Shown piece after piece: positions 34,387-63,000 of a DNA stretch of 64,000 nt; position 1 is the stretch's first letter; every line of letters begins with the position of its first letter. The notes beneath the pieces are model-generated. The model had not been told where the DNA came from. It saw only the letters and a program-made list of their open reading frames with translations, and made no database searches. Origin of the DNA: Nemertoderma westbladi (lineage: Eukaryota > Animalia > Xenacoelomorpha); contig JAUCBJ010007687.1 of assembly GCA_032718475.1 (NCBI GenBank), positions 1 to 64,000 on the forward strand, in the 5' to 3' direction. The translations under genes were made by a program, and so were the position numbers.

Positions 34387-34439
34387 GCTTGATACTAGAA
34401 CAAAGCTTCGCAGGACATTATTTTCGCCGTGAGGACCGG
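34387..34439 (+). mobile_element. Left part of an older RTE-like LINE fragment split by element 2a (continues at 49935)
   Basis: CTTGATACTAGAACAAA...GCAGGACATT.TTTTCGCCGTGAGGACC matches ~35639-35698. The continuation ACCAGCCAGTGCATAATC starts at 49935. Confidence 0.75.
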
Positions 34440-35110
34440 TGTTCGCGCTTTTAGACCTTTAGCAGTTTAACCTGCCAAATTTAGGTGTCTTCTAGGTTAT
34501 AAATCGACTTTAGCCTATAACGAGAGAAAGCCGCCCCAATATTAGATTATTACAACAACATATCCATTGGGTAAGAAAGTGGAGGAGAGCCAGCCCGTCT
34601 CTTAATTTTTTACTTTATATTACGCGATAAATTTTCACTCATCTCGTCATGAACCCAACATGTATGTAACCTTTTGTTAAATTTGTTGGCTATGCGTTTG
34701 CGGTTGTTTGGGCGGAGTGTGGTAGGCCTACACTTTTCACAATTAAATATTTTGGTTGTGAAATGTTACAGGGCATAGCGATCTGAGATATTTCATTTAT
34801 ATTTTATTATGAGAGGAAGAAGAACATACAACGTTATTTACTATGTAACAAAATAATTGTTTTCGGGTTTAACTTGGAAGCCTCCCCAAATAGTTGATAT
34901 ACAATTATATTTAAAATTATTTCCATGGTCATGGTTATTCACCCGTCTTTAGTTAGAAATTTGTTTGCATGAAAGACAGTTTAGTTTAGTTTTTACTGAT
35001 TTATTATCTCTTATCTGACTGGATAGGATAAGATAAGATAAGGATAGGATAAATGGAAGCAAAGTGTGACAGTAACAAATATTTCCCCGTCACCCTAGCA
35101 TGTCTTAAGT

Positions 35111-35920: not shown

Positions 35921-36195
35921 CACTGTATTAAGAGTATTTTGACGCATTGCGGCATAAAATGGCTTGTTATGTCCGCCAAAGTACACATACAGAATAATGG
36001 CTTTTTATGTCCGCTAAAACACCTACACAGTAAGAAAATGGCTTTTTATGTCCACTAAAATACCTACACAGTACTTTGCGGGGAAAATGACTAGCTATAT
36101 CCGCAAAAGCTTTTACACCGCTCCCAGAAAATGGGATTTAATTCTATAAAATATAAAAAATCACAGTTTCTAAAATATAAAAATACTCTAAACAG

Positions 36196-39028: not shown

Positions 39029-42000
39029 TTATGTTGGGGAGTCCCTAGATGTTTGTTGGATTAGGGAGGTGGTCGTGGGAAGAGTATCTTGCCTTCCATA
39101 GTTTCCGGAGAGTTCTCTGTCTCTTTCCAGTAAACATAAACGACCAACTGGGCGGTTGAGTTGCTGCGTCTCGAAGACAATTCCCGGTTTCTTAAAGTTA
39201 CGTCGCATGACGACGAGTTCTACCGATCGCACCAAACCATCATCCGAGATATGAGTCTCGATGATACGACCTGTCTGCCACCGCTTACGTGGAAGATATG
39301 AATCCACAATAAGGACCATGTCTCCGGCGATGACGTTTTCTTGCTGCGCAAACCACTTGGTTCGAAGTTGTTGTGTCGGCAGATAATGTTTTTCGAAATG
39401 GTCAGCGAAACGACGGGATAACAACTGCATAAGTTGCCAAGTTTGCCGGCAGTATTCGTCTCTGTCCGTGATTTCCGATCGTGGGAGCATGGCTACAGGT
39501 TTCTTCAGTAGGAAGTGCGCGGGTGTTAGCGCTTCCAGGGAATCGGGACTCGATGAGACTGGCATAAGCGGTCTCTTGTTGAGATAGGCGGCGATTTCCT
39601 CCATTAACGTCCGCAAAAGTTCGTCGGTGAGATACGCGCGGCACGGCACTATAAAGTGAAATGCGGTCTTCACGCTCCTGATTAATCTCTCCCAACTTCC
39701 TCCCCACCAAGGGGCGTCGGTGGCGTTGAAGGTCCAGCTAGACGCTGTTACCCTTAGCTGATCGTCCACCTGTCTTTGGTTCCAATCTTTGACGTAAGCC
39801 TTGATTTCATTGTTGGCACCAATGAAGTTCATTCCCTTATCAGATCTCATCGTGTTACTAGTTCCAAAGCAAGCAATCTGTTGGCGTAAGCTCAATATGA
39901 AGCTATTGGTAGATAAATCGTTCACCATATCGAGATGGATAGCTCTACAAGTCATACAGACAAAGATGACACACCATCTCTTGACTATAGTCCTAGCACG
40001 ATATACTTCAATAGGGCCAAATAAATCCACACCGGTATTAGTAAAGGGTGGTTCTGGTTCATAGAAGCTTACTCGTTCCCTAGGTAATTCTGCCTCTCGC
40101 TGTGTTAAAGGCCTACTGAATGCTTTCCTACAGGGTATGCAGTTCCTAAGAACTTGGTTCAGAGCTCTACGGGGTTTACGAAAATAATAGCGAGTTCGAA
40201 TTTCGCTAAGAACTTGTTCTCTACCAGCATGATAAAGCTTACTGTGAACATCTACAATCATCTTGATTTGTATTTCAAGATTTCTAATGAGTATGGGAAA
40301 CTTAGTGTCAAAGGATAATGGAGCATTAGTTAGTCTTCCTCCAACACGTATTAACCCATCTATCATTGTGCTAGAGAAACGATCCCTTAAGCGCATCTGT
40401 GGATTTCTCAACAACAGGAAATACTTATTGGAATCCTCATAGCATTGCAGGAGTCTCAGTATCTGCTTATTGGTTTCTTCATGCTCCTGGTAACTGATCT
40501 TCTCCTTCAGAAACCTGTCGGATATCTTGTATTTGGGAAGATCTTTCACAACATGGACCTGCGCAGATGTCAGTGGAGCAGTATCACTAGTGGTCTTCGT
40601 CCTGGAGTAGTGATGATGAAAACATCGCTTTAAATATGTAACGGCCTTACAGAGCCGATTCCAGGAACTATAGTGATGTATCGCTCTCTGCAAGAGAGGT
40701 GAGAGTCCTTGCGAGACGTCTGTTATTCCAGATTTCCAATCTCTCTCTCTGATTTCCATAACAGACTTATTTGTGGCTGTGGGTTTCGGATCCAAAACGT
40801 CGTCTCCGGAAACGCGTAGTACAGACAGATCTATCGCGGGTTTAAATAACTTCGATTTACTCGCCCGGGTTTTAGGTTTGACTTTCTCCGCTCCCTTGGC
40901 TTGTCTAATCTCAGCCGTGGTAAGATAAGGAGGCCATTCATCCTCTTCCTTGCTTAGGAAGTCGGGTCCACCTAACCAGTCTGGAGTATCTATCAGTTCC
41001 TGTGGAGTGGCTCCTCTGGAGGCAATGTCGGCTGGATTAATCATCCCGGGGCAATGTCTCCATTGATCTATCTTCGTACGACTAAGTATAATGGCTACTC
41101 TGTTGGTAACGAAGACGCTGAACTGACAAACTTCATTGGTTATATACTCCAACACGAGTAAAGCATCGGTCCAATAGACAGTTTTCTCCAGTGGATAGTC
41201 GATCTGTTCTGTTACATTCCGGCCGATGGCTGTAGCGTATAGAGCCGCTTTTAACTCCGCTCAAGGAACTTTCAACTTGTTGTTTATCAAGGCCTTAGAG
41301 GTAACCAAGGCGACCTTAATTCCATCCGGAGTTTCAACCCTCAGGTAGGCTACTATACCTATTCCCATATCGCTGGCGTCCCCAAATACATGGAGTTGAT
41401 AGGAATACGTGGGGAGAACATGACCAAAATAAGAATGGGAAATCGTAAAATTCTCGATGGATGGTAGAGAATCTTCCCATTTCATCCACTTCTTTAATAG
41501 TTCTCCCTTAAGTGGATCGTCCCACGAGTGGTTTTCAAGCCACATTTGTTGTACTAAACTCCGAGCAATCAATATAACTGGGCTAATAAATCCCAATGGA
41601 TCGAAATAAGTGCTCAGGATACTTAGACAAATCCGTTTAGTCCGAACTGGATTATCTCGCTGTTTTAGCTGGAAAAACAGGATATCTCTCTCTGTGTCCC
41701 ATTTCAAACCAAGCGTCTTGGTTTCCGGAAGATCATCCTTGATTAAGTCTAAATCTTTAACTCCTCGGTCTTCTACCGGGATTGATTCCAGAAACTCACG
41801 GGAGTTGCTTGTGAATTTAGTTAATCGAAATCCACCTCTTTTTAAGCACTCTACCGTTCCTTTGGCGACATCAATGGCTTCTTCCACCGATGGGAGGGAC
41901 TTTAAATTGTCGTCCATGTATATATCCCGTTTGATGTTGTCGATAACCTCTTTGGAGAAGGCGTCCCGGTTGTCATCAGCAGTGGTACGCACTACTGAAC

Positions 42001-45000
42001 AGGCGTTTGAAGGGCTCGAGATGATCCCAAAAGCCTGGATGGTCATCCAGTACTCCACCGTTTTCTGGTTGAGGTCTCCTTCAGGCCACCACAGAAATCG
42101 TAGGCTGTCTCGATCTCTATCCAGCGCCTTAACTTGTAAGAACATGCCTTCTATATCCGAGGCAAAGGCGATCGAATATTGTTGTAATCTTAAGAGTATT
42201 CCCAACAAGGAATGGAGTAAGTTGGGTCCTGGCAACAACTCGGAGTTAAGGGATTGGCCCATGTAGAGGGCGGAACCGTCAAATACTACCCGGACTTCGT
42301 TGGGTTTACCTGGTTTGGGAACGTAATGATGTGTTAGATAGTACGTTCTCTCAGTTATGGGTGTTTTTTCCGGTACTCGCTCCGCATATCCCTTGTCTAT
42401 GAATTTCTTCAGCTGTGTCTTGTACATCTCTTTAGCTGAAGCATTTGCCGTAAGGCGTCGATGTAATTGCGCGATTCTTTTCTCCACCAAGGGTCGGTTG
42501 TTTATAAATTTAGGTTCTCGCTTTCGAAATGGCAGACCAATTTCATATCTACCTTGATCTTTAAGAAAACGCGTAGTTGTTTCCTGGATCTGCTTGGCTC
42601 TTTCTTCTTCTACCGATAGGGCCTTATCGTAGGAATTGGGCTCTACAGCCTCTTGGGTAAAGAATCATACGGCGTGTTCATCGCGAGTCTTCGCGTTGTA
42701 GCGATCTATCACTTCATTCAGTTCGTCGTTGTAGTCGACTTGTTCTGCTGGATGAATGAGGTGACATAGGTTTACTTGGTTTTGCCAAGTTTCATTTTCT
42801 GTAAGGAGGTCGATGGTATTCTCCTCGTCGAAGAGTTGGTGGATATCGTCATTATCTGAGGAGTATGGTGTTCCCTCAGTTGGGTCGTCTCCCTCACTGA
42901 TCTCCTCTTCCCATTCACTTACTTGGTAGACCCGTTCCTTGGGTAGCCTTTCCATGAGGGTTCTACGAGAAGGGCCAGTAAAGTACCAACCTACCCTAGT
43001 TCTTCCTGCATAGGTTTGTAGTGGTTGCGGTTGAGCAGGCCGTTTCTCCAATGTCTCAAGCGCCTCATGCGCATTTTGGCCGATGAGTATTTGCACTCCA
43101 GGGTAGTCTGTGTTGAATCTAGGTATCTTATGCTGCTGGGTGAAATCGTCCTCATCCCAGTTATAAGGTTCCACTTGGCTGGTAGCGAAGTTCTTTATCG
43201 CCACCATTTTTACTGACCTTATGCTGTGTTCTCCTAGTTCATCCTGGGGGGTGGACAAAGCACCTACATAGTAATCTGTAGTTACTGTAGATTTCCAAAC
43301 CTTCATAATTCCTGACATGTTCAACTTAGTTCGGAACTTGGGTTGTCCAGCAAAGATGTCTTCGGCTAGTTCTTTGTCGATGAATGTTCCTGTGCTGCCG
43401 GAGTCAAGGAGGGCGTTCACTATATAGCTCTTATCAGGTCCGTGGACTCTCAACTGCACTACGGGAAATTCTCGGATTCCTACGTTGGAAGTTGGTGCTT
43501 TCCAAGATGGTTGTCGGTCAGGAGTAGTTAGGGGGAGCTCATTCTCTATTTCTTTCTCATACGTAAGTGCTCGATACACTGCGGTATTTATTAGGTAACA
43601 GGATTCGTTTTCGTCGGAGAATTCATCTGTATAGAATCCTTCCATCTCAGAACTTTGATCAGTGTCGTTCACATCACTGAATTGGACATGTAGTTCGGAC
43701 TCACTTACCTGACTTGGGCTGTTTCTTTCGAATTCAGTGTGCAACAAGATATGATGTTTCCCGCCGCACTTTGCACACCTTGCGTCGGAGTAACAGGTTC
43801 GCCGTTGGTGTCCTTGTCTGAGGCAATTATAACACAACCGCTTATCCCACATGACTTCACGTCTATCTTTTAGTGATTTCTTTAAAAATTTATTACACCC
43901 ACTCAAGCGATGGGGCCCGTCACACAATACACATTTGGGCTTGATATTACTTACCTTAACCTGTGCTGTGTGGTGCACACTTGTTCTTTCCTCGGGCTTT
44001 CTTCCATGAATTCCATTAGGAGACGTAGGAGAAGTTGTTGTTACCTGTTCTCTCCTGTCACTGGTTCGAGACTTAAATTTACTTACGTCTTTAGGTACTT
44101 TGTTGACATAATAGGATCTTTCGGTGTCTTTCCCGCTGTTCTCCTCGTGGGAGGTTTGGTCTTTGCCGTCGTCTTTATAACACACAGGTGTTACCTTTCG
44201 CCTAGAAACGGAATTTTCACTTAATTCACTTTCAGGAGTCTTCTCTCTAGACTGTTTTAGGAGTTGTAATCTTACCTCTCGGTTTAAGAATGACAGAAGG
44301 TACGTCCGTCGTTGGATCTCTATGTTGTTGGTCCATCAAATAGAGAACCTTTTTGTCCCAGCGAGTACCTACTTCACTCTTTGGCAAAGCTGATGCTAAG
44401 GCTCCTACAACCATAGAATTCTGGTATTCATGAGACTTACCTAACCAATCTAGTTGTCTACAGATCTCCTGAATCTCATCGGAAAACTCTATAATCCCGC
44501 TGCTAAGGAACTTTCGGGGTGCTACCAATTTTGCATACAAATACCTAGCTATGTTTGTCCTATTACCATACCTGATGTTTAGTGTATCCCAAACTTGTCT
44601 TAATCCATCTGGATGTCCAATAAACTTTAACGCCATTAACTTGGGAGATCCTTCCAAGCACTCGATGAGGAATCTAAGTTTCTCTCCGTTAGATAGCACA
44701 GAGTTCTGTATGTTATCTTTGTAATATTCATTAAAAGGTAACCATTTCATCTCATCTCCATTGAACTTGACGATCTCTCCCACCTTTACCGCTGGACGGG
44801 CTTCGGTTCTAGCCATTTGACGTGTAAAACTTTCTTGGGCCATCGTGTTATTTAATATCGAGTTATCGGTATATAAATTTCTCGGATTATGATCAGGTCT
44901 ATATGGAATATCATTGTCAACAGGTTTATAATTACCCTTAATAGGGTTTACTATAGGAGTTTCCACTTCACTAGCAGTATAGATGCGTGTAGGCTCCACA

Positions 45001-46845
45001 CCTTGCGCATGAAATACTTCAGACCTAACAGGTTGACACATTGTTACAGGGGGTGGTGGTATACCCTTTTGTCTATTTACTAATTTATCGCGTTCTAACG
45101 CGATACTCTGCTGCACTTCTTGCAACTCTAACCTACTTTCCCTTAAGGTTCCCTTGAACTGTTGAACAGTCTCCTGCATCTGCCCGAGCAGGAGATCCAT
45201 CCCCCGCCGTCTCTCATCCACCCACTCGACCGCCGAAGCGGGAGCTGCCAACATAGTAGCGGGTAGACGAGGGACAACGGGCGACAAATCATTGATATCT
45301 CGCTCGGAGTCCAGGACAGGAACTGTCTCAGGGGCTGTTCTGCTGGGCACAGGTAGTTTAGTGCTGTGCAAAGGGAATTTAGAGGTAGGTTCTGGGAGTA
45401 AAGGTGTCTCTATCACCGAAGGGGTGGCTTCGAGAACAGGCCTAATTATTTCAGGCACATCTACTATAGTAGGGAGTCTTTCTACTCTAATAATTTGGTC
45501 TGTGGGTTCTGTAATACCTAAGTCTGTGTTAGCTAGTTGCCTTCTCACAGCTGGGGGCAATTAGGCAATTTCTGACGGTGGGGCGTTCTTCTACGCCTAC
45601 TTAGACGAGATCTATTTCCTCCGCCTTCAGGATCGGTGGTATCGCCTTCATCAGATGATGTAAATCCCTGTCTTTTTGGAGTAGATCGACTTATCATCTG
45701 CATTTGACTAGCTGTTAACTGTTTATTTATGTAGTCTTGCTTCTCTTGAAGATTTTCCAACTCTAGTTGGGTGGTCTCTTCAGACGCCCTCCGTTCTGCT
45801 TCTGCCACTGCCTCTGCCGCTTTTCTTTCCGCTTCTGCCGCTGCCACTGCCGCTTTTCTTTCCGCTTCTGCGGCCTTTCTTTCAGCTTCTGCGGCTGCCA
45901 TTGCCGCTTTCCTTTCAACTTCTGCCGCTGCCGCTGCTGCTATCTTTCTGTCTTCTATACGTTTTTTCTTTACTTGTTCTTCTTGGACCCTAGCGATGCG
46001 GATGCTTTCATCAAATTTAGCTTGATTCGCAGCTAACATTTCCGCATCTATTGCGTCCAACACAAGCTTGGCTCCTTCACTATTAGGACGAAGTCCAGAC
46101 AGCCTTCTCCTCAACTCTTCGTCACCTAGAAATCGTTGATAGTCTGACAGATAGATGTCAATAGCATCCTTCTTCTGCGGTTTCTCTGCTGTCGCTTCGC
46201 TTTCCACTTGAGAAAAGGTAGCGTCTGTTGATTCTCCGTGGGTTGAGCGCTCAGCCAGCTGAAATTTCCGTTCCTTGAACCTTGAGACTCACCCGCTGAA
46301 ACCAAGTCTTTACGGCAACTTGCAACGACGTGTCTTGTCTTCTTTTCGAAGCCTCCTCAAAGGCCGATAGGATTAGTCTGATTCTTAGAATTCTTTCTCC
46401 AACTTGATAAAGCAGCTCTCCCTGCTCTTGAGGTCCTTGGGGTTGTCGAAACAGTTGGAAACAATACCCTAGTGAGTACGGCTGCAGGAAGAATGAGAAG
46501 GGGATCCGAATAAATCGCATCTGCCATCTTTGCTCTGCGCTCGGGAGTCAGCTCTACAGTATCCGAACTACTGGAGCTATCGGGCCGCTGAGAAATAAGT
46601 TCTCGGCTCGGGTGTTGCTGCTGTTTAACAGCTGCTTCTTGGTCCCGCTTGACTCGAGCCCGAGTGCCTATGATAGACCTACGGTGTTGGACTAGCCTAG
46701 GGTCTAATACTACTTCTGGAGGGATGATCTTTCTTACAGTAGGAGGTGAGTTGAACTTCGGTCTCAAACGTTCCACACTCCTATCTGGGTCACAGATGGT
46801 TGTATCTAGGAGACTGTCTGACAGGTTTTGCTTTGTGTCAGACAT
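39029..46845 (-). pseudogene. Disrupted BEL/Pao gag-pol of copy 2a
   Basis: Fragments 46845-46357, 46207-45545, 45560-44247 (capsid-like), 44185-42665 (Zn knuckles, protease ALLDSGS), 42490-41261 (RT YMDD, RNase H LHVFGDAS) and 41155-39029 (integrase), separated by stops and frameshifts. Confidence 0.93.
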
Positions 46846-48769
46846 GTTTGTTTATACAGTTGAATGCCTACTGCTATATTACAGTTAAAGCAAGTCTAGT
46901 AATTCAGTATCAACTGTTAGCGTAGTAATTAATTACCGATATCGTTACTCTATGTAACGCGATATATATACAATATATTAGAATACCGGTATACACTTAT
47001 AGTATATATATAAGTATTATTACAGACTAGGTTTGTCACAGAATACCGGTATATAATTTCAGCACAAATATATATAAATATATAATAAGCCTATCATGAA
47101 TACCGGTATACAACTTACACTTATTGTATATAAGTATAATTATAGACTAGAATTAATTACAGAATACCGGTATATAATTTCAGCTCAAATTTATAGAAAT
47201 AAATATAATAAGCCTATTGTAAATACCAGTATGTCAATTATTTTAGAATAATTGAATTTCTGAATTTTAGGGGTTACTTGGTTACTTTACTTTACTTTAT
47301 TACCGTTATTTAAGCAGTAGTCCAACTGATATTAAGACCTAATTGTTGTATGACAGGCCTACTATTTTATAAATCGGTTTGAGTTGACTTATAATATATA
47401 TATATATATACCCTGTAATGGGTTTTGTCAATATTTGAAATAAATATTATTATTTCTGGTAAGGAGTCACTTCACAGAAGCTAAACGCTCTCAGTGTAGT
47501 GCTACTTATTGTATTGGACACTAAAACAAATAATTCTAATTTACTAAGTTACTTATTACTACAACTTATGTACAATTGCGGGGTGAGATTACAATCTCTA
47601 AATAAACACAAAAAAATTACAAGTACAAATTTTAGGGGTAATTTTACAAGAAATCTACAAACCAGCCTAACAAGGGGTTATAATTTCTGGTTATTACAAT
47701 GGACAGGATACTACGGTATTTGAAAATAATAAAGCAGTAGTAAATATATTGTGCTGTCTAGATAGGAAAAATACCACCGTCTGACGACTTATAGCCGTAA
47801 CGCTATAAGTACTACATTATGTACCCGAAGTGTTCCTACCTAGAAGTTAATTACCGCAGCCTACTATAGCTAACGTGCCTATTAACAACTTTACAACACA
47901 AATATACTGCCTACAAACTAATTACTTTCGGAAAGCACTGTACACTAAACCCTAAATTAGGTACAAGTACTTATACAACAAATATCCAGCAGTTAAAAAT
48001 ACTTGTACAGCTAAAAGAACCACGGTATCTGCCGGAGTGACTAGAGCATAAAATCACCAGTCTTTACCTACGCCAAACAGCCCTGATGTAGTACCGGGGT
48101 TAATTTAACTATAACGGTATGTATAACAAGCACAATTACTGTTGGAATAAACTTGGGGTTATGAATGTTGCAAATAATCGCATATACTCTGAATAATAGA
48201 TATTACGCTACCCATACAGACTACACAAACAAAATACAGACCGAACGCTGGCAGACTACTATCAAGCCCAAATAAACTACAGTATATGCAGACTCCGAAA
48301 TGGTTAGTTAGTATGCGTTCTAACCGAGTAGTACGACTTATTCTTTCGGGGGGGGGGGGGATTTACCTTACAGCACTGGATGCCCCCACATTCCTAACTA
48401 GTACTTTATCGGACATACACTCTACACACACTGCAATCTCTTCAGACCTAACAACAGCCAGACAACAATCCAGCCTACAAATTATTTATACAATCTGAGC
48501 AGGTTACACGCCTTCTGCTCAATATTAACTTACAGATAAATAAAACTGACAGAAATAAGTAAAATCTCAATAAAAAACCAGGGCTGCAGTCCCTGATTAA
48601 ATATCAAGACGTACCGGTATATAATTATCAAAATTGAATAATACTGATGTACCTGTACTGCTGTAAGTACCGGTAAGGGTGGTTAGGTAGTTAGGCCTAC
48701 TGGTTACCGGTCGACCGGTACTTTTGCCTTAATTGCCTACGTTGCAATGTAGAAAGCTATAACTGTTAT

Positions 48770-49934
48770 TGTTCGCGCTTTTAGACCTTTAGCAGTTTAA
48801 CCTGCCAAATTTAGGTGTCTTCTAGGTTATAAATCGACTTTAGCCTATAACAAGTATTTGATATACATAAAGTTACATTAGCCGAAGCCAGCCTATGCGC
48901 GATCATTCACCCACGGTTAAGGGAGACTGGATTCGGATGCTCTGACCTTATTGCGGTGTAGACCTACTGTATTATTCGATTGATCGTTACTATAATATCT
49001 CTGACAAATATTATTCACTTTCGGGAAATATTAACAGTTCCTTTAGGACGTGGCGCTCTAAGTATGTAAACAGAGTTATGACTTACACTAAACACAACGG
49101 GATGGCTAGTGATTCACGTATAAAGCGCATTCTTTAGGAAATGCTTTGTTATCTGTCATACTCATGCACATTACCGCACACTGCTGCACACTGATCTGCC
49201 GACCTTCACTAAATTTGATCATATGTAAGGAGAACAGCAACTGACACATGTAGGGCCTATGAAATAGCATTCAATTCACTCCAAAACCACTATAATGTAA
49301 GTCGCAATTGCTATATGTAACCGGTCTCTCTAACCTTCAGTATATCAAGAAGATTGGGGTTTTCTGATTATTTATCGATATTCTCCAAATATAACAACAT
49401 ATCCATCAACTGATACAATTAATAACCGACAGTAAATAGCAGTAAAATAATGCGGTGTTTGTATGTGATCAGGTTTGACAATATGACAATATGATAACAG
49501 TTATACGTTTCTATGATCAAAGCTGTTCTAATGTTTGGCTAATAATAATTCCACAGCCGATGTTCTGGGCTCAGGTAAAAAGGTAAACAAAGACCATAAT
49601 GCATTGCGCGATTTCCCGGAGGCTTCTGTGCAAATAAAATGAAAATCGCTCTGATTGGTCGAGTGAGTGAGCCTGAACAAAGAAAGCCAAAAGCTCCACA
49701 TCGACATATCAGCTGATAGATGTCGTCTTCTAAACTACACTGTATTAAGAGTATTTTGACGCATTGCGGCATAAAATGGCTTGTTATGTCCGCCAAAGTA
49801 CACATACAGAATAATGGCTTTTTATGTCCGCTAAAACACCTACACAGTAAGAAAATGGCTTTTTATGTCCACTAAAATACCTACACAGTACTTTGCGGGG
49901 AAAATGACTAGCTATATCCGCAAAAGCTTTTACA
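48770..49934 (-). repeat. 5' LTR of copy 2a (1165 bp, TGTAAAAG...GCGCGAACA)
   Basis: Both ends match the 3' LTR remnants, and it is homologous to 52152-53331. Confidence 0.9.
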
Positions 49935-50197
49935 ACCAGCCAGTGCATAATCTTGTGCTTCGGCGCCCTCGTGGAGTGAATAAGCATGGTGGACAGCCCA
50001 TGACTTTCTTGAGACGCATCTTAAAGGACACTGGCCTTGAAGATGCGGATGATCTAGCAAATATCATGGGTGATAGGGAGTTGTGGCGGCTCAATTTAGT
50101 CGACGAGCCATCGCAGTATTCTTAATATTTATGTAATATATATATATATATATAATGCAGCTGCAATGCAGTATGCCGATCGTAGTAGTAGTAGTAG
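49935..50197 (+). mobile_element. Right part of the RTE-like fragment, ending in a (TAG)n tail
   Basis: Encodes QPVHNLVL...ELWR and ends CGATCGTAGTAGTAGTAG. Confidence 0.85.
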
Positions 50198-50200
50198 GTT

Positions 50201-51230
50201 ATTAAGTCGATTAAGTCGAATTTGGGCCAAAAAATTGACATTTTTAAGTATATCCCATCTAAATCAGAATGTAACGGGGATTCCAAATCGAAAAACAGTT
50301 TTTCCATATTTTGTTTCATTCACGAGATATCATGCCTGAAGTACGGGTAGTTTTATAGGTACAGTAGTTGAGTAGGCTGAATTTGCGTTTCACAGATAGT
50401 TGTCATATTTAAATAAAATATTTTTTATTTTTATTTATTTTATTGTCATAAAATCATATTTGTGTCAACTTTAAGATATTTTAGAGGTTATTTTTTAATT
50501 CAGCACCCCTATTTTAGTGCATATAGCAAGTATTGGTATTCTACTCATTGCAGAATTAATTATGTGACAATAATTTAGTTGTTCGCTAAATATTCAAAGC
50601 TCGATATTTCTGGCTTACTCTAATTCACATTTTCCCGTGAATTATTTTTTCGCTACGAGCATGTCTTTAAAAAAATGTCACACCCTTCATTTTTATCGTA
50701 TAGAGCTCATTCAGGTCTCATTTTAAAGGGGATTTTCAGGAGAACAAATGTTAGTATATTTTACAGAGGGACTTTCAAGATAACTCACTAATTGACTGCA
50801 ATGAAATATAATAACTCCAGAATTTGCGAAAGCTTACCGTTTAAATGATGGATAGCTCTTCTTTGCATATAGCATTCGTTTTGACTTATACTAACATTTG
50901 TTCTGAAAATTATCTTTAAAATGAGACCTGAATGAGCTCTGTAGGCCTACGATAAAAAATGAAGGTAGTGAAACATTTTTAGACACGCTCATAGCGAAAA
51001 AATCATTCACGGGAAAATGTGGAAAAATTAATATCGCGACATTAGAGACTACCCGTACTTCACACATGATATCTCGTGAACGAAACAAAATTATGGAAAA
51101 ACTGTTTTTAGATTTGGAATCACCATTACAATGTGATTCAGATGGGATATACTGGGATTTTAGATAGATGGGATTTTTAATTTTTTGGTCCAAATTCGAC
51201 TACCCCCCCCCCCCCCCCCCCCCCCCTTAA
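50201..51230. mobile_element. Foldback non-autonomous DNA transposon (MITE, possibly Kolobok-like, TTAA end)
   Basis: Outer inverted arms ~50213-50352 and ~51047-51201; inner arms ~50625-50758 and ~50887-51021. The right end is poly-C followed by TTAA. Confidence 0.7.
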
Positions 51231-51515
51231 ACAAACACAACTAGTTTATTTACCGGTACATATAGTACTATAAAACTCATTATACAACCCGTTTTGGTTT
51301 GATTTTTCATTATTCTTTGTACATTTATACACTCATTTTCTTATTGCCTTCGCTTTGCTCGGCGAATATCTTACCGCAACGCTATAAAGTGATACTTTTT
51401 GATCAACAAAAAATTATGAATGCGTCTAGTTATTATTATTATGTAATATACTCAGTGATCGTAAAGTAAATTACTATCGCTCTGAATATACTTTATAGTA
51501 ATTTTATTAGTTTCA

Positions 51516-52151
51516 CATGGGAACAATGTAGGCCTACAGTACAGTATACAGGACATGGGAACTATGTAGGCTTACAGTACAGTATACAGGACATTGCAAC
51601 TATGTAGGCCTACAGTACAGTATACAGGACATGGGAACTATGTTGGCCTACAGTACAGTATACAGGACATGGGAACTATGTAGGCCTACAGTACAGTATA
51701 CAGGACATGGGAACTATGTAGGCCTACAGTATACAGTATACAGGACATGGGAACTATGTAGGCCTACAGTACAGTATACAGGACATGGGAACTATGTAGG
51801 CCTACAGTACAGTATACAGGACATGGGAACTACATTATGTAGGCCTACAGTACAGTATACAGGACATGGGAACTATGTAGGCCTACAGTACAGTATACAG
51901 GACATGGGAACTATGTAGGCCTACAGTACAGAAGACAGGACATGGGAACTACAGTATGTAGGCCTACAGTACAGTATACAGGACATGGGAACTACGGGTA
52001 TATGGCCTACAGTACAGTATACAGGAGATTGGAACTATGTAGGCCTACAGTACAGTATACAGGACATGGGAACTATGTAGGCCTACAGTACAGTATACAG
52101 GACATGGGAACTATGTAGGCCTACAGTACAGTATACAGGACATGGGAACTA
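51516..52151. repeat. 38-bp minisatellite (~16 units) GGGAACTATGTAGGCCTACAGTACAGTATACAGGACAT
   Basis: Direct tandem period of 38 bp with the internal palindrome TGTAGGCCTACA; abuts the 2b LTR. Confidence 0.95.
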
Positions 52152-55100
52152 TGTAAAAGCTTTTGCGGACATAACAAGTCATTTTTCCCGCAATGAGCAG
52201 TGTAGGGGCTTTTGCGGACATAACAAGTCATTTTTCCGCAATGCGCAGAATACTTTAAAATAGCCCTGAATTTGTCCAACTATGCGACGGGAGGGAATTG
52301 GAGCTGGTGTGACGACATCTATCAGCTGATTCTCTGTGGACGTGGAACTTTTCTTTGTTCTGCCTCGTCAGCCAATCAGAGCGATTTTCCCCCTTATGTC
52401 TGACAGAGGCCTATGGAAACCCGCGCAATGCATTACGGTCTTTGTTTACTATTTTTCTGAGCACCAGAACCGGCTCGGAATCTTCTGTACTTCTGTGTAG
52501 AAGTTTCAGACTTTGGCCTAAACATCAGATGGCTTTGATTATAAGAATGTAAATCTATTATCCAACCACCTACCTGGATCATTTACTTCTCCTGAAACTC
52601 ACCTGACTGCCTGACTTTCATAACTGCATAAGTAACACATACTGACTGTTCACCGCATTATTTTACTTCTGTTATTAATTGTTGTTATATTGATGGATAT
52701 TGTTGTTATATTATGAGAATACCGATAAATAATCATAAAACCCCCAATCTTCTTGATTACTGAAGGTAAGAGGAACAGGTTTACCGGTAGCAGCTGCGAC
52801 TTAAATTATAGTGGTTTTTGTGTGAATTAAATGCTATTTCATAATCCCTACAAGTGTCAGTTGCGATCTTCCTTATATATGATCAAATTCAGTGATGGTC
52901 GGCAGATTAGTGCGCAGTAGTGTGAAGTAGTGTGAAGTAGTGTGAAAGATAATAAAGCATCTCCTAAAGAATGCGCTATTTACGAAACTCTGTGGCCATC
53001 TAGTTGTGATAAGTATAAGTCATAACTCTGTTTTTATACTTAAAGCGCCACGTCCTAAAGGAACTGTTAATATTTCCCCGAAAGTAAATATATTTGTCAG
53101 AGATTATATAGTAACGATCAATCGAATAATACAGTAGGTCTACACTGCAATAATTCTCAAAGCATCCGAATCCAGTCTCCCAAAACCGTGGGTGAATGAT
53201 CGCGCACAGACTGGCTTCGGCTGATGTAACTTCAGTACACTAAATAATCGATATAGGCTAAAGTCTATTTATAAACAAGAGGACAACTAAAATTGGCAGG
53301 TTAAACTGCTAAAGGTCTAAAAGCGCGAACAATAATAGATTTTTTATCTTGATTGCACAGTAGGCAATAAATATTTTGTCTATTGTTCTGGTAAGAACAA
53401 TAATAGATTTTAAGTTTCTTTATTGCGCCGTAGGCAATAAAGTCGAATGTACCGGTCAGACGGTAAACTGTAGGCCTAACTGCCAAACCACCCGAACCGG
53501 TACTTACCGGTACCAGTATTATTTCGATTGTGATATATTGTATATTAGTAGGCTGTTTAAGAAAGTAGGGACTGTACACCCCTTATTTCTTTTAGAGCTT
53601 ATTTATTTCTGTCAGTTTTATTTATCTGAAAGTGTAATATTGAGCAGAAGGTGTGTATAAACCTGCTCAGATTGTATAAATAATTTGTAGGCCAGATTGT
53701 TGTCTAGCTGTTGTTAGGTCTGATGCGATTGCAGTGTGTGTAGAGTGTCTGTCCGATAAAGTGCTAGTTAGGAAGGTGGGGGCATCCAGTGTTGTAAGGT
53801 AAATCCCCCCCGAAAGAATAAGTTGTACTACTTGGTTAGAACGCCTACTAACTAACCATTTCGGAGTCTGCATATACTGTAATTTATTTAGGCTTGACAG
53901 TAGTCTGCCAGCATTTGGTCTGTATTTTGTTTGAATCGTCTGCAAGGGTAGCGTAATATTTATTATTCAGAGTTTATGCGAGTATTCGCAACCACCAACT
54001 CCCCAAGTTTATTCCTACAGTAATTGTGCTTATTATACATACCGTTATAGTTAAATTAACCCCGGTACTACATCAGGGCTGCTTGGCGTAGGTAAAGACT
54101 GGTGATTTTGTGCTCCGGTCACTCCAGCAGATACCGTGGTTCTTTTGGCTGTTCAAGTATATTTAACTGCTGGTTATTTGTTGTATAAGTACTTGTACCT
54201 AATTTAGGGTTTAGGGTACAGTGCTTTCCGAAAGTAATTTAGTGTGTAGGCAGTATATTTGTGTTGTAATGTGGTTAAAAGGCATGTTAGCTCTGGTTGG
54301 CTTCGGTAATTAACCTCTAGGTAAGGACACTCCAGGTACATAACGTAGTACTTATAGAGCTAAGACTATAAGTCGTCAGACGGTGGTATTTTCTTATCTG
54401 GACAACGCAACTTACTTACTACTGCTTTATTGTTTTCAAATACCGTAGTTTCCTGTCAGTTTGTAAGAACCAGAAATTCTAACTCCTTGTTAGGCTGGTT
54501 CGTAGATTTCTTATAAAATTACCCTAAAAAAATGTATGTGTAACTTGTTATTGTTTATTTAGAGATTGTAATCTCAAACTGTAATTGTAAGTAATTTGTA
54601 GTGATAAGTAACTTAGTAAAGTAGAATTATCTGTGTAGTGACTCCTTATCCAGAAATAATAACATTTATTTCAAATATTGTCAAAACCCATTATACAGGT
54701 ATATATATATTTATAAATCAACTCAAACAGATTTATAAAATAGTAGGCCTGTTATACATCAATTAGGTCTTAATATCAGTTGAACTACTGCTTAATAACA
54801 GTAATAAGTAAAAGGGAAGTAACCCTAAAATTCAGAATTTCAGTTATTATAAAATAATTGACATTACCGGTGCGGTATTTACGGTAGGCTTATTATATAT
54901 TATTATATAAATTTAGGCTAAAAATAAGTACCGGTATTCTGTGACTAAATCCTAGTCTGTAATAATACTTATATATATACTATAAGTGTATACCGGTATT
55001 TTAATATTATATATATATCACGTTACACTGAGTAATGGTATCGGTAATTAATTACTAGGCTTACAGTTGATACTGAATTACTAGACTTGCTTTAACTGTC

Positions 55101-58100
55101 GTTATAGTAGTAGGCATTCAACTGTAAAATAAATCATGGCTGACACAAAGCAAACACTGTCAGATAGTCTTCTAGAAAGAACAGTCTATGACTCAGATAA
55201 GAGTATAGAACATCTGAGACCGAAGTCCAAGTCCCCTCCTACTGTAAGAAAGGTCATCCCTACAGTAGTAGTAACAGACCCTAGGCTAGTAAAGCACCAT
55301 AGGTCTATCTAGGCACTAGGGCTCAAGTTAAGCGGGACCAAGAGGCAGCTGTTAAGCAGCAGCAGCACCCGAACCGAGAACTTATTTCTCAACGGCATGA
55401 TAACTCTAGCAGTTCAGACACTGTAGAGTTGACGCCCGAGATCGGAGCAAGGATGGCAGAAGCGGTTTATCTATATCCACTTCTAATTCTTCCTGGGGCC
55501 GTACTCACTAGAGTATTGATCGCTGTGGAAGAACATCAAATCGATTGGGCGAGAAGTAAGCGATCGACCAGGGACAGTTATGCGGGATACACGATGGAGG
55601 AACTGAGGTCTATTGTCGAGACGCAATGGAACTTCCCTGGACCCAGCCTCCCGTTTAACTTATCAGAAGCTGCCTGGGAGGACTTATACAGGATGGGCAT
55701 AGTAAGAGAAACCTGCGATCCAGCTGTATGGAAGAGGTCGGCAGCAGGATATGTCCAGGGATTCTTCAGCTCTTTGGAGCGATTAGAAGAACACCTATTC
55801 CAACAACGCCAAGGACCTCAAGAGCAGGGAGAGCTGCTTTATCAAGTGCGAGAACGAATCTGACGGATCAGACTAATCCTTTCAGCCTTTGAGGAAGCCT
55901 CGAAGAGAAGCCAAGACACATCGTTGCATGTTGCTGTAAAGACTTGGTTCCAACGCGTGAGTCTTAAGGTCCAAGGAACGACACAATGGAAAGCTCAGCT
56001 AACCGAGCGCATGACCCACGGAGAATCAACAGATGCCACCTTTTCTCAAGTGGAAGGCGAAGCGACAACAGAAAAACCTCAGAAGAAGGATGCTATTGAC
56101 ATCTATCTATCGGACTATCAAAGATTTATAGGTGACAAAGAGTTAAGGAGACGGCTAGCTGGACTTCACCCTAATTGTGAGGGAGCCAAGTTTGTGTTGG
56201 ACTCGTTAGATGCAGAAATATTAGCTGCAGAACAGGCTAAATTGGATGAAAGCATTTTCCTCGCAATGGACCAAGAAGAACAACTAAAGAAAAAACAGAT
56301 TGAAGACCGAAAGTTGGCAGCAGCGGCTGAATCTGAAAGAAAGGAAGCAGCGGCAGCAGCAGAATCTGAAAGAAAGGAAGCAGCAGCAGCAGCAGTGGCA
56401 GAAGCAGAGTGACGCGCATCTGAAGAGACAACCCAACTAGAGTTGGAAAATCTTCAAGTGAAGCAAGATAACTTAAATAAACAGAGAACAGCTACTCATA
56501 TGCAGTTGCTGAGTCGATCTACTCCCAGAAGACAGGGATTTACCTCCTCTAATGAAGGCGATACAACAGATCCTGAAGGTAGAGGAAATAAATCTCGTTC
56601 CAGCGGACGTAGAAGAGCACCACACCGGCAGAAATTGCCTGATTTGCCTCTGGCTGTGAGAAGACAACTAGCTAGTGTAGATTTAAGTAATCCTGAGCCT
56701 ACAGACCAAATTATTAGAGTAGAAAGACTCCCTACTATAGTAGACGAGCCCGAAATAATTAGGCCTGTCATTGAAGTCACTCCAGTGCTAGAGACCCCTG
56801 TACTTACAGAACCTAACTCTAAATTCCCTTTGCACAGTACTAAACTACCTGTGCCCAGTAGACTAGCCCCTGAATCACTCCCGGTCCTGGACGCCGAGCA
56901 AGACATAAATGACTTGTCTCCCGTCATCCCCACGCGTCACCCGGCTACCACGTTGGCGGCTCCCGCGGCAGCGGTTGAGTGGGTGGACGAGGGACGACGG
57001 GGGATGAATCGCCTGCTCGGGCAGCTAGAAGAACATAAACAACGTTCTTCCCAGCAGGTCCGAGAGTTGGAAGGGACTGTTCAGCAGTTAAAGGGAACAA
57101 TGAGAGAGAGTAGGTTAGAGTTGCAAGAAGTGCAACAAAGTATCGCTTTAGAGCACGATAAATTAGTAAATATACAAATGGGTATACCACCACCCCCTGT
57201 AACAATGTGTCAACCCGTTAGGTCTGAAGTATTTCATGCGCAAGGTGTGGAGCCTACACGCATCTATACTGCGAGTGAAGTAGAAACTCCTATAGTAAAC
57301 CCTATTAAGGGTAATTATAAACCTGTTGATAATGATATCCCATACAGATCTGATCATAATCCGAGAAATTTATATACCGATAACTCGATATTAAATAATA
57401 CGATGGCTCAAGAAAGTTTTACACGTCAAATGGCTAGAACTGAAGCCCGTCAAGCGGTAAAGGTGGGAGAGGTCGTCAAGTTTAATGGAGATGAGATGAA
57501 ATGGTTACCTTTTAATGAATATTATAAAGATAACATACAGAACTCTGTACTATCCAACGGAGAGAAACTTAGATTCCTCATCGAGTGCCTGGAAGGACCT
57601 CCCAAGTTAATGGCGTTAAAGTTTATTGGATATCCAGATGGATTAAGACAAGTTTGGGATACACTAAACATCAGGTATGGTAATAGGACTAACATAGCTA
57701 GGTATTTATATGCGAAATTAGTAGCGCCCCGAAAGTTTCTTAGCAGAGGGATTATAGAGTTTTCCGATGAGATTCAGGAGATCTGCAGACAGTTAGATTG
57801 GTTAGGTAAGTCTCAGGAATATTAGAGTTCTACGGTTGTTGGAGCTGTAGCATCTACTTTGCCAAAGGGTGGAGTAGGTACTCGTTGGGACAAAAAGGTT
57901 CTCTATATGATGGACCAGCAACAAAGAGACCCTACCATGGCTGATCTCATGTCATTCTTAAACGGAGAGGTAAGATTACAGCTCCTAAAGCAGTCCAGAG
58001 AGAAGACACCGGAAAGTAAGGTGAGTGAAAAACCCATTTCCAGGAGAAAGGTAACACCAGTGTGTTATACGGACGATGGCGAAAGCCAAACCTCATACGA

Positions 58101-61100
58101 GGAAAACAGCGGTATCAACTGGTAACAGCTGGTACAGCTGGTAACAACAGATTGGTCTTCCATTCCGACGGCAAGAACCCAACTTTATAAATAACTGACC
58201 TTTCGCGGAAAAGAGAATCGCGGAACTACATCGGCGTCTTACGGCCAACGTTCCAGCCAGGGAAATGTATAAAACCCAGCTGAAAAAATTTATTGATAAA
58301 GGATACGCGGAGCGAGTTCCGGAAGAAACACCTATAACGGAAAGAACGTATTATCTAACACATCATTACGTTCCCAAGCCCGGTAAACCCAACGAAGTCC
58401 GGGTAGTGTTTGACGGCTCCGCCCTTTACATGGGTCAATCCCTAAACTCAGAACTGTTGCCGGGACCCAACTTACTCCAATCCTTGTTACTATTAAGATT
58501 ATTAATACTATTAAGATTGCGGCAATATTCTATCGCATTCGCTTCGGACATAGAAGGCATGTTCTTACAAGTCAAGGCGCTGGATAGGGATCGAGACAGC
58601 CTACGATTTCTGTGGTGGCCTGAAGGAGACCTCAACCGAAAACCGGTGGAGTACTGGATGACCATCCAGGCTTTCGGGATCATCTCGAGCCCCTCGAACG
58701 CTTGTTCAGTAGTGCGTACCACTGCCGATGACAACCAAGATGCCTTCTCTAAAGCAGTTATCGACAACATCAACCGGGATATATACATGGAAGACAATTT
58801 AAAGTCCCTCCCATCGGTGGAAGAAGCCATTGATGTTGCCAAGGGAATGGTAGAGCGCTTGCAACGCGGTGGATTTCGACTAACCAAATTCACTAGTAAC
58901 TCCCGTGAGTTTCTGGAATCGATCCCGGTAGAAGACCGAGGCGTTAAAGATCTAGACCTTATCAAGGACGATCTTCCGGAAACCAAAACACTTGGCTTAA
59001 AATGGGACATGGAGAGAGATATCTTGTTTTTCCAGTTAAAACAGTGAGATAATCCAGTTAGAACTAAATGGATTTGTCTAAGTATCCTGAGCACTTATTT
59101 CGATCCATTGGGATTTATTAGCCCAGTTATATTGGTTGCTCGGAGCTTAGTGCAACAAATGTGGCTCGAAAACCACTCGTGGGATGATCCACTTAAGGGA
59201 GAACTACTAAAGAAGTGGATGAAATGGGAAGATTCTCTATCATCCATCGAGAACTTTACGATTTCCCATTCATATTTTGGTCATGTTCTCCCCACGTATT
59301 CCTATCAACTCCATGTGTTTGGAGACGCCAACGATATGGGAATAGGTATAGTAGCCTACCTGAGAGTTGAAACTCCGGATGGAATTAAAGTTGCCTCGGT
59401 TACCTCTAAGGCCTTGATAAATAACAAACTACGAGTTCCTAGAGCGGAGTTAAAGGCGGCTCTATACGCTACAGCCATCAACCGGAATGTAACAGAACAG
59501 ATCGACTATCCACTGGAGAAAACTGTCTATTGGACTGATGCTTTACTCGTTTTGGAGTATATAACCAATGAAGTCTGTCAGTTCAGCGTCTTCGTTACCA
59601 ACAGAGTAGCCATTATACTTAGTCGCTCTAATGTAGATCAATTGAGACATTGCCCTGGGACGATTAATCCAGCCGACATCGCCTCCAGAGGAGCAACTCC
59701 TCAAGAACTGATAGATACTCCAGACTGGTTAGGTGGACCCGACTTCCTGAGTAAAGAAGAGGATGAATGGCCTCCTCATCTCACCACGGCTGAGATTAGA
59801 CAAGCCAAGGGAGCGGAGAAAGTCAAACCTAAAACCCGGATGAGTAAATCAAAGTTATTTAAACCTGTGATAGATCTGTCTGTACTACACATCTCCAGGG
59901 ACGACACTGTGGATCTAAACTCCCCTACCACAAATAAATCTGTTGTAGAAATCAGAGAAAGAGACTGGAAATCTGGAACACCAGACGTCTCGCAAGGACT
60001 CTCACCTCTCCTGCAGAGAGCAATAAATCATTATAGCTCCTGGAATTGGCTTTGTAAGGCCGTCGTGTATCTGAAAAGATGTTTCCATCATCACTATTCC
60101 AGGACGAAGATCGCTAGTGATACCGCTCCAAAAATATCCGAAAAGGTCCATGCTATCAAAGATCTGCCCACTTACAAAGTGTCGGATAGGTTTCTGACGG
60201 AGAAGATCAGTTACCAAGAGCATGAGGAAACCAATAAGCAGATACTGAGACTCCTGCAATGCTATGAAGATTCCGATAAGTATTTCCTGTTGTTGAGAAA
60301 TCCACAGATGCACTTAAGGGATCGTTTCTCTAGCACAATGATAGATGGGTTAATACGTGTCGGAGGGAGATTAACTAATGCTCCATTATCCTTTGACACT
60401 AAGTTTCCCATACTCATTAGAAATCTTGAAATACAAATCAAGATGATTGTAGATGTTCACAGTAGGCTTTACCATGCTGGTAGAGAACGAGTTCTTAGCG
60501 AAATTCGAACTCACTATTATTTCCATAAACCCCGTAGAGCTCTGAACCAAGTTCTTAGGAACTGTATACCCTGTAGGAAAGCATTCAGTAGGCCTTTAAC
60601 ACAGCAAGAGGCAGAATTACCTAGGGAACGAGTAAGCTTCTATGAACCACCCTTTACTAATACCGGTGTGGATTTATTTGGCCCTATTGAAGTATATCGT
60701 GCTAGGACTATAGTCAAGCGATGGTGTGTAATCTTTGTCTATATGACTTGTAGAGCGATCCATCTAGATATGGTGAACGATCTATCTACCAACAGCTTCA
60801 TACTGAGTTTATGCCGACAGATCGCTCGTTTCGGAACTAGCAACACGATGAGATCCGACAAGGGAACGAACTTCATTGGTGCCAACAATGAAATCAAGGC
60901 TTACGTCAAAGATTGGAACCAAAGACAGGTGGACGATCAGCTAAGGGTAACAGCGTCTAGCTGGACCTTCAACGCCACCGACGCCCCTTGGTGGGGAGGA
61001 AGTTGGGAGAGATTAATCAGGAGCGTGAAGACCGCATTTCACTTTATAGTGCCGTGCCGCGCGTATCTCACCGACGAACTTTTGCGGACGTTAATGGAGG

Positions 61101-63000
61101 AAATCGCCGCCTATCTCAACAAGAGACCGCTTATGCCAGTCTCATCGAGTCCCGATTCCCTGGAAGCGCTAACACCCGCGCACTTCCTACTGAAGAAACC
61201 TGTAGCCATGCTCCCACGATCGGAAATCACGGACAGAGACGAATACTGCCGGCAAACTTGGCAACTTATGCAGTTGTTATCCCGTCGTTTCGCTGACCAT
61301 TTCGAAAAACATTATCTGCCGACACAACAACTTCGAACCAAGTGGTTTGCGCAGCAAGAAAACGTCATCGCCGGAGACATGGTCCTTATTGTGGATTCAT
61401 ATCTTCCACGTAAGCGGTGGCAGACAGGTCGTATCATCGAGACTCATATCTCGGATGATGGTTTGGTGCGATCGGTAGAACTCGTCGTCATGCGACGTAA
61501 CTTTAAGAAACCGGGAATTGTCTTCGAGACGCAGCAACTCAACCGCCCAGTTGGTCGTTTATGTTTACTGGAAAGAGACAGAGAACTCTCCGGAAACTAT
61601 GGAAGGCAAGATACTCTTCCCACGACCACCTCCCTAATCCAACAAACATCTAGGGACTCCCCAACGTAACAGCGTCTGGAGTGGGTGTGTGACTACATTA
61701 TTTTATATTTTTTTATTATTTTTATATTTATGTATGCATTATTATGTAATTTCATTATTATAATCGTTTTCTTTAATTTTATTTAGTGGATTATTATTTT
61801 AGCGATTATTAAGTAGATTAGTGCAATATATATTCGTGTTTATTACTTAATTACTTAGCATTATACATTTCGTTTAACGGCGAGAAACAATTCATTTTCT
61901 CTTTCCTTACTGTCCGTATCATATTACAAATACGTGACTACAGTAAGATGAAATGTCCGTACTTATTAAAAAGTACAATACCGCCCCTACTATAATCAAG
62001 TATTATTGGTAAGTAGAGTATTGAGTATTAGGAATGCAAAGTTCAGATCCTCTTGTCTCGGCTAAACCAAGCTCTGGGTAGACCTTGGAAACGACTTGTC
62101 TCTTCTCACTGACATTGCTTCTTGCAATATTGCTCTCATACCGTATATTAAATAATACATATAGTAGAATGATGTCCATTTAACAGTAGCGTTAAAATGC
62201 AAAATAAATCTGTTAAACCCTTTGACCATCTGAAATTCTAGTCGATTAAGATATTGCGGCACCCACCGATATACTTGAAAGACAAAATTCTAGAATCAGT
62301 GGTTAATGTCCCCAGACATGTTCTGGAATAAATCGGTGCCCATCTTAAATATTAAACATTTAATAAATATTTATAAAATCTATTAAAACAAACGTTATAA
62401 TAGAGTAAATGCTGACAAATAAACTCTAAAGAGTTTGTAAACCAAAAATCTGTTAAAATTTAGATCCTTTAAATTTCTAGTCAATTAAGATATCGTAGCC
62501 CTTACCGATACTCTTAAAAAGACAAATTTCCTAGAATTAAGGATCCTAGTCCCCAGACATGCTCTGGAATAAAATTGTGTCTATTTTAATGTCAAATAAT
62601 AAAATTTACGGGAATAAATTTTAAATTCATATCCTCTCATAAATTTGATAAATTGTCATTTTTACAATTTATAACATTCCGAAAATTCCATTAATTAATA
62701 GATCATGGGAGCGGAGATTCACCCTATTAAGTATATTAGTGTGCAAGAATCTCCAATGTATAGTCAATAGCCGATAAAATTCATAAAATCATGTATAAAG
62801 GGGAATATTGACAATTAAAGAATTACTATTAAACAGCATCCCAGATCTGTATGCATGGGAATTACCCTAATTCTACTGCTAGCTTTCCATAATGTCACCA
62901 TAGCAACAACCACGCTAGAATTAGAAGCGAGTTAAAAGAACAATAGAAAGCTTGCCCCATTGAATAGCATACGGAATAAATAGCACCCTGCTAGTATCCA
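52152..63000 (+). mobile_element. BEL/Pao family 2, copy 2b (defective; 3' end missing or interrupted)
   Basis: 5' LTR at 52152-53331 (TGTAAAAG...GCGCGAACA). Colinear with the reverse complement of 2a until CTGCTAGTATCCA at ~63000. No ORF2 or 3' LTR is seen in the window. Confidence 0.9.
55136..61669 (+). pseudogene. Disrupted gag-pol of copy 2b; Zn-knuckle/protease region deleted; RT motif YMED
   Basis: Starts ATGGCTGACACAAAG, homologous to MSDTKQ of 2a. Multiple stops, a deletion at ~58113-58150, and an RNase H-integrase ORF at 59108-61669. Confidence 0.92.

Follow-up and report, generated by a model that had tools for sequence, protein, structure and literature searches.

Probable Tf1-like self-priming of BEL/Pao retrotransposons in Nemertoderma westbladi

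Tf1 is a retrotransposon with long terminal repeats (LTRs) that primes its own reverse transcription. According to the accessible part of one source, its first 11 bases pair with its primer-binding site (PBS); RNase H cuts between bases 11 and 12 (PMC7175516). In about half of the Tf1 complementary DNA, the 3′ end still carries the PBS copied as DNA, as given in the accessible text of PMC11042837. Self-priming is listed for Tf1/sushi, Tcn1, and TAR/Houba/Osr-1 in the accessible text of PMC6317226, which for the TAR lineage asks for at least 10 bp of complementarity starting 0 to 5 bp after the 5′ LTR. Herein, these systems are compared with three LTR retrotransposons, termed 2a, 2b, and family 1, that lie in AT-rich, satellite-laden DNA of Nemertoderma westbladi (contig JAUCBJ010007687.1, positions 1 to 64,000; this whole stretch of 64,000 nucleotides is called the window). 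Of the readings considered for these BEL/Pao elements, Tf1-like self-priming in which the primer is copied into the PBS explains them best and, judged from their sequence, is probable.

2a on the minus strand and 2b on the plus strand are BEL/Pao LTR retrotransposons, and so is family 1. Frames of all three elements match Pfam Peptidase_A17, DUF1759, Integrase_H2C2, and DUF5641, which are BEL/Pao markers, and the Pao-type gag, RNase H, and integrase domains stand in the order Gag–protease (PR)–reverse transcriptase (RT)–RNase H (RH)–integrase (IN). For the corresponding family Belpaoviridae, the ICTV (virus taxonomy committee) profile gives an 18-nt PBS for tRNA-Arg or -Gly, LTRs of 0.2–1.2 kb, and genomes of 4.2–10 kb, and calls the replication poorly understood (PMC8742986). 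The terms primer, PBS, priming, and tRNA are absent from the main text, as far as accessible, of a survey of 7,861 BEL/Pao elements (PMC3118150). No self-primed BEL/Pao element was found in the accessible parts of the literature searched, including PMC3601003, PMC5445492, PMC8220671, PMC3286476, and PMC13524379, with subscription journals, Repbase notes, and supplements being outside its scope.

In each of the three elements, the sequence directly following the 5′ LTR is the exact complement of a site within this LTR. The sites are as follows:

49494 to 49505, minus strand: candidate self-primer of 2a, 12 nt, TATAACTGTTAT, at LTR position 430, exact complement of the PBS
48758 to 48769, minus strand: PBS of 2a, ATAACAGTTATA, at offset 0 after the LTR
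52551 to 52561, plus strand: candidate self-primer of 2b, 11 nt, exact complement of the PBS; the 12-letter motif TAAATCTATTAT starts at 52550
53332 to 53342, plus strand: first copy of the PBS of 2b, motif ATAATAGATTT at 53332, at offset 0
53400 to 53410, plus strand: second, identical copy of the PBS of 2b, in a 68-nt tandem unit
10953 to 10964, plus strand: candidate self-primer of family 1, 12 nt, unrelated in sequence to 2a and 2b
12268 to 12279, plus strand: PBS of family 1, at offset 0; a second, 11-nt copy lies at 12304 to 12314

Hence, exact pairing spans 12 nt in 2a, 11 nt in 2b, and 12 nt in family 1, and the PBS lies at offset 0 in three of three elements. The Tf1-type arrangement, a PBS 0 to 5 nt past the 5′ LTR with at least 10 nt complementary to the element's own LTR, is found in all of them, with the internal site visible in both LTRs only for family 1. 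Dinucleotide shuffles of the LTR reached the observed match in 2/3000 (2a), 2/3000 (2b), and 2/5000 (family 1) cases. When the match test is moved down the leader of 2a, offset 0 alone among 1540 positions gives a 12-nt match; for 2b, a match occurs among 1539 positions at offsets 0 and 68, the latter being the duplicated PBS. The pairing is real, and chance is excluded. On the 5′ side of the core, shuffles pair equally well (278–1050 of 2000); an extension of the duplex past the core, which had seemed real by eye, was rejected on this ground. Testing 18 nt with RNAduplex was insensitive (28/100 for 2b). A tRNA-type PBS starts with TGG. In all three elements, the 57 nt that follow the LTR contain no TGG; the first one lies at offset 57 in 2b, and none occurs within 80 nt in 2a and family 1. 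Judged by TGG, the 18-nt tRNA 3′-end PBS of the Belpaoviridae is missing from the three elements. A piece of the element's own RNA, and not a tRNA, likely primes reverse transcription.

2b (53332–53410) and family 1 (12268–12314) each carry a tandem second copy of the LTR end and PBS, which 2a does not. The PBS or the LTR junction also recurs, inverted and imperfect, between the tandem PBSs, as TCTATTGTTC in 2b and CATATTTCCTA in family 1, and could form a hairpin with either tandem copy. A structure like the U5 inverted repeat (U5-IR) would be expected beside the PBS of Tf1-type elements. The local folds there differ among the three window elements, with 2a and 2b having two small hairpins in common.

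2a and 2b differ in both paired sites, and the differences mirror each other. The original prediction had named four motifs in 2a and 2b, all of which were located at their places, and had taken the LTR-internal sites to be homologous with three differences; the sites indeed align without gaps behind GCTTTGAT. Its statement that the PBSs differ at exactly the three partner positions stands in the ungapped register counted from the LTR end: positions 2, 4, and 7 of the 11-mer are changed (T>A, A>T, and G>A), and positions 10, 8, and 5 of the PBS are changed to the complements. With a 1-nt gap, it does not stand, as two changes are then compensatory and one pair is broken. The proposed 12-mer pairing applies to 2a with its 12 bp; the core is 11 bp, since the twelfth pair of 2a is T·T in 2b. 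TAA>AAT is possibly one slippage event, so that the three changes may be two events. Mirrored changes of this kind have a probability of 8e-6 to 6e-5 under independent mutation at 17–30% divergence, and of 2e-4 to 8e-4 if three changes on each side are taken as the starting point. Among 27 perfect helices of at least 8 bp in the LTR and leader of 2a, the other 26 are never intact in 2b with a compensatory change. The 2a core is a near-palindrome and is also readable as a direct repeat; 2b keeps the inverted relation only (4/11 as a direct repeat). The matched duplexes have energies of –11.4 (2a) and –8.0 (2b) kcal/mol, compared with –4.3 and +0.4 kcal/mol for the cross pairs; 2a and 2b, hence, no longer cross-pair.

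The two sites have diverged at about the background rate, with 3 differences in 11–12 positions compared with 264/1108 across the LTRs of 2a and 2b. Templating of the PBS by the primer would predict such mirrored change at about background rate, as is seen, while selection alone would predict depleted change. This makes the 2a/2b pair a natural test of primer-templated PBS renewal. If the PBS is rewritten from the primer, the mirrored differences need three (or two) mutations instead of six. The earlier proposal that the PBS is copied from the primer fits these sites, which diverge and stay paired, and is put forward here in a conditional sense. Complementarity is kept while the sequence changes in the mirrored 2a/2b sites, the unrelated pair of family 1, and 13/16 relatives (below). 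In Logan unitigs of runs X1 to X3, the family-2 LTR is highly repeated and variable, with 2831–9024 contigs per run. Among the matches listed (40 per search), none lies over the two sites, which are separated by 735 nt and thereby too distant for unitigs to join. Run X4, from a second organism and presumably RNA, has no cover at 49486–49705 and was left out. Unitig depth drops about 30–100-fold at 49473–49515, at a stretch end where 2a is without about 41 nt compared with 2b.

The following cycle is proposed. Transcription would likely start at or just before the LTR-internal site, and this site would pair with the PBS by folding back. A cut by the element's RNase H just 3′ of the site, after A-pyrimidine and mostly before C, would then leave a 3′-OH, from which minus-strand DNA would run through about 720–1050 nt of the unique 5′ and repeat regions (U5/R). 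The daughter PBS would arise during plus-strand synthesis as a copy of the primer. A mutation in the LTR site would herein enter the primer and then the plus-strand PBS, and would be fixed in part of the progeny.

Most of the distant relatives tested share this complementarity. One metagenome scan gave 79 loci at 36–43% identity, 43 of them with a long-range direct repeat. Seventeen loci in which the LTR end was seen twice were chosen by eye, and L002 was dropped as a duplicate of L004, leaving 16 relatives that were tested for contiguous and GT..AG-spliced matches between PBS and LTR (the search required GT only). The majority of the loci belong to a single accession series, probably from one host, and the 13 relatives with complementarity therefore do not stand for 13 independent hosts. 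Eleven of the 16 relatives pair via a predicted splice junction (L004, L006, L013, L021, L031, L038, L039, L044, L048, L059, and L077) and two contiguously, whereas three show nothing. The 11 spliced matches cover 11–16 nt of the PBS across the predicted junction, reached by 0–4 of 300 shuffles. The predicted LTR introns are GT-AG introns of 72–186 nt, removal of which would create the complement of a PBS at offset 0–4 nt; the donors are GTAAGT (7), GTAAGC (2), and GTACGT (1), and in L048 the top hit is non-canonical and a GTAAGT donor gives 15 nt. The contiguous pairs are those of L058 (10 nt; 9/300 shuffles) and L072 (12 nt; 0/300). The window elements are contiguous, unlike most relatives. 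A splice-built primer was also tried for them and rejected: the best junction matches of 11, 9, and 8 nt are reached by 15, 116, and 217 of 300 shuffles.

In a quick tree of 46 rows, the window elements form their own branch (Shimodaira–Hasegawa-like approximate likelihood ratio test [SH-aLRT] 98) within a 32-row clade (SH-aLRT 100) that holds all these relatives. Their company there is coral, bryozoan, and metagenome relatives, the insect and nematode rows standing apart, and L058 and L072 are nested among the spliced forms. Because the base of the clade is poorly supported, loss of the intron in the window lineage may be considered as a candidate only. It is an evenly balanced proposition that a whole marine BEL/Pao lineage does without tRNA priming, that in most members the host spliceosome joins two LTR pieces into the primer, with the window elements being intron-less, and that the pair drifts into a private key for each subfamily. 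Such free drift would follow from the PBS being rewritten from the primer in each cycle. A 21-nt LTR pattern was found in 0 metagenome contigs, and viral contigs held no relative. In L028/L029, a BEL/Pao element is repeated in tandem every 6138 bp, and its units apparently share LTRs.

The paired segments also share their boundaries. Across the 13 paired relatives and the three window elements, in a post hoc comparison of related rows, the segment ends in A-pyrimidine in 15/16 (background 0.13) and is directly followed by C in 13/16 (background 0.18). A pyrimidine-A, initiator-like step lies in its first 3 nt in 13/16 (background 0.39). These boundaries fit a common cut site together with a putative transcription start at the 5′ edge of the segment.

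Several observations weigh against Tf1-like self-priming. The covariation comes from two copies only and its count depends on the register: a pairwise aligner prefers the 1-nt gap in the 2b PBS, which leaves 9 pairs unchanged, 2 compensatory, and 1 broken. The 2b duplex, at –8.0 kcal/mol, is weak and has a single G-C pair, and its pair probability in the global fold is about 0.05 compared with 0.82–1.0 for 2a. L023, L067, and L078 show no pairing; their LTR ends are doubtful, and L067 has a TGG at offset 1. The primer lies 724, 770, and 1303 nt from the LTR end compared with 86–278 nt in relatives, which would leave an unusually long stretch to copy before strand transfer. Upstream of the family-1 site (329–595 nt) lie three CCAAT, a TATA (–455), and an AATAAA (–329); these point to transcription beginning about 430 nt upstream of it, a misfit with a 5′-terminal primer. 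Upstream of the sites of 2a and 2b, no TATA motif was found.

The last points lead to a rather unlikely variant, in which self-priming occurs from an internal position: transcription would start far upstream, and the primer would be cut from, or still attached to, a long 5′ leader, unlike in Tf1. It draws on the family-1 promoter motifs 430–600 nt upstream of the site and on the lack of a promoter motif at –30 in any of the three elements. However, the pairing stops sharply at 11–12 nt, with a 5′ extension no better than shuffles, and the initiator-like step marks the 5′ edge in 13/16. Tf2, moreover, uses alternative start sites according to the accessible part of PMC5341516, so that even with an upstream promoter the genomic RNA may begin elsewhere. 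That the primer is instead the RNA's own 3′ end, cut at a poly(A) site in the 3′ LTR, is very improbable, since AATAAA/ATTAAA is absent upstream of the site in 2a and 2b and lies no nearer than –329 in family 1, while a poly(A) signal follows 11–128 nt downstream in 11/13 paired relatives.

Long-range RNA pairings serving other purposes exist in other LTR elements. The duplex might, by analogy, be a selected structure for packaging, dimerization, or a switch that hides the PBS, with host RNA, for instance a tRNA half or a spliced leader, acting as the primer. In 2b and family 1, the partial anti-PBS copies that separate the tandem PBSs would suit such a structure. Nevertheless, this explanation is improbable, as a separate host RNA would be required for every family. 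A host primer would also fix the PBS, yet between 2a and 2b the PBS diverges at the background rate, in family 1 and the relatives its sequence is unrelated, and it matches the element's own LTR. As for a chance match in AT-rich DNA, the LTRs have a GC content of 0.38–0.41 and in family 1 a further 12-nt match lies at offset 750, among 803 positions; the shuffles, the fixed position, and the mirrored changes refute it for the pairing itself and leave it a vanishingly small probability, as the covariation had earlier been taken to argue. The further claim that covariation is what primer use predicts is borne out as the best reading by offset 0 in three of three elements, the missing TGG, the unrelated family-1 pair, and the 13/16 relatives.

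The remaining architecture of the three elements comprises the following features:

49934 to 34440, minus strand: whole element 2a, from LTR to LTR
48770 to 49934, minus strand: 5′ LTR of 2a, 1165 bp, TGT...ACA; both ends are found again at 35919–36117 and 34440–34524
39029 to 46851, minus strand: gag-pol region of 2a, broken by stops and frame changes, with Pfam DUF1759, Peptidase_A17, Integrase_H2C2, and DUF5641
36118 to 36125, minus strand: polypurine tract (PPT)-like stretch of 2a, GGGAGCGG, directly before the 3′ LTR
35919 to 36117, minus strand: first 199 bp of the 2a 3′ LTR, 199/199 identical to 49736–49934
34440 to 34524, minus strand: last 85 bp of the 2a 3′ LTR, 84/85 identical to 48770–48854
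34435 to 34439, plus strand: target-site duplication (TSD) of 2a, ACCGG, within a fragment resembling a long interspersed nuclear element (LINE); the other copy is ACCAG at 49935–49939 (4/5 match)
52152 to 53331, plus strand: 5′ LTR of 2b, 1180 bp, TGT...ACA, ends placed by homology to 2a
55303 to 61669, plus strand: gag-pol region of 2b, broken by stops, with Pfam hits
10088 to 12267, plus strand: 5′ LTR of family 1, TATAG...ATTTA, with a LINE-like insertion at about 11105–11365
13491 to 21749, plus strand: BEL/Pao gag-pol frame of family 1, 2752 codons from stop to stop
24706 to 27594, plus strand: 3′ LTR of family 1, with a 958-bp insertion and the primer site at 25571–25582

Two LTRs, a TSD, and a PPT, as expected of BEL/Pao, are present in 2a and family 1; the 3′ end of 2b, with its 3′ LTR, lies beyond the window edge. 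The LTR end of 2a is real because both LTR ends recur, with TG..CA ends and a 4/5 TSD, and the final 31 nt of the 2b LTR are identical to it. The middle of the 2a 3′ LTR, including the internal primer site, is swapped for LINE-like and other DNA. GGAGCGG of the 2a PPT-like stretch also precedes the 3′ LTR of family 1. In family 1 (10088–27594), the two LTRs are identical at 1918/1919 shared columns and the TSD is GTGGT; over RT/RNase H, it is 44% identical to 2a. Among 105 homologues, nearly all contain PF05380 and PF18701, and the best named ones come from corals, a bryozoan, and insects at 30–38% identity.

The LTRs of family 1 (10088–10092 and 27590–27594) end in TA..TA and not in TG..CA, with a perfect 5-bp TSD in a 37-bp satellite. 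The unique 3′ (U3) part of these LTRs holds a tRNA-like A box and B box at about 10219–10290 and 24837–24908; ARAGORN and Rfam gave no hit for this stretch. Behind pol of family 1, an extra 553-codon frame (22449–24110, plus strand) shows three CX2C..H..C knuckle-like motifs, with zf-CCHC at E 0.004, below cut-off, and no similarity to the rest of the window. 2a and 2b (34440–63000) stand head to head 2.2 kb apart as an inverted repeat, the arms of which are about 12 kb long and 83–92% identical, reaching 98% over 38995–40054. Past the end of their homology (37718), the 3′ part of 2a contains a decayed coding-like stretch (36200–37340, minus strand), with no Pfam hit for the 153-codon frame searched. 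A LINE-like element with a weak RVT_1 hit lies in four pieces (11105–11365, 34363–34437, 35109–35921, and 49935–50190), with one in the family-1 5′ LTR, one in place of the middle of the 2a 3′ LTR, and one split by the 2a insertion. A lysine- and cysteine-rich frame of 393 codons (31498–32679, minus strand) with internal repeats of about 51 residues is probably a host exon; no Pfam family scored above cut-off.

Descriptions of the Belpaoviridae present them as tRNA-primed; published self-priming, as far as the accessible texts go, concerns the gypsy elements Tf1/sushi and Tcn1 and the copia elements of the TAR lineage. There is good reason to think that the BEL/Pao elements of the window work as Tf1 does, although the tRNA PBS of their own family is missing. 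If true, self-priming would extend to a third superfamily, and tRNA-free priming would have arisen again or be older than thought. The elements would be beyond the control exerted by tRNA fragments at the PBS, and self-priming would explain why PBS finders leave such elements blank.

Compared with the known systems, the window elements combine features of several. With the Belpaoviridae (BEL-Pao, Semotivirus), they have in common the Gag–PR–RT–RH–IN markers, the LTRs, the 5-bp TSD, and the PPT; they differ in lacking a tRNA-type PBS, in their length of 15–17 kb, and in the 1.9-kb LTR of family 1 with its TA..TA ends. For the TAR lineage (Houba, Osr-1), self-priming is predicted by the same complementarity found in all three window elements, as the accessible text of PMC6317226 indicates; those elements, however, belong to the Ty1/copia superfamily and to plants. 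The Ty3/gypsy elements (Metaviridae) of the Tf1/Tf2/Tj1 and Tf1/sushi group and the Tcn1 clade have, like the window elements, a PBS of about 11 nt beside the 5′ LTR that is complementary to an LTR-internal site. The Tf1 group is likewise devoid of a tRNA site, and the Tf1 PBS begins with ATAAC as that of 2a does (accessible text of PMC11042837). The chromovirus-type Pol that marks Tf1/sushi membership is absent from the window elements, whose Pol is of BEL/Pao type. Hence, they differ from the Tf1 group in superfamily, in their LTRs of 1.2–1.9 kb, in the 720–1050 nt from primer to PBS, and in the tandem PBS copies of two of the three elements; the 5′-terminal position of the primer is herein only putative. 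Most of the relatives depart further from the Tf1 group in that their primer would be assembled only by a predicted splice.

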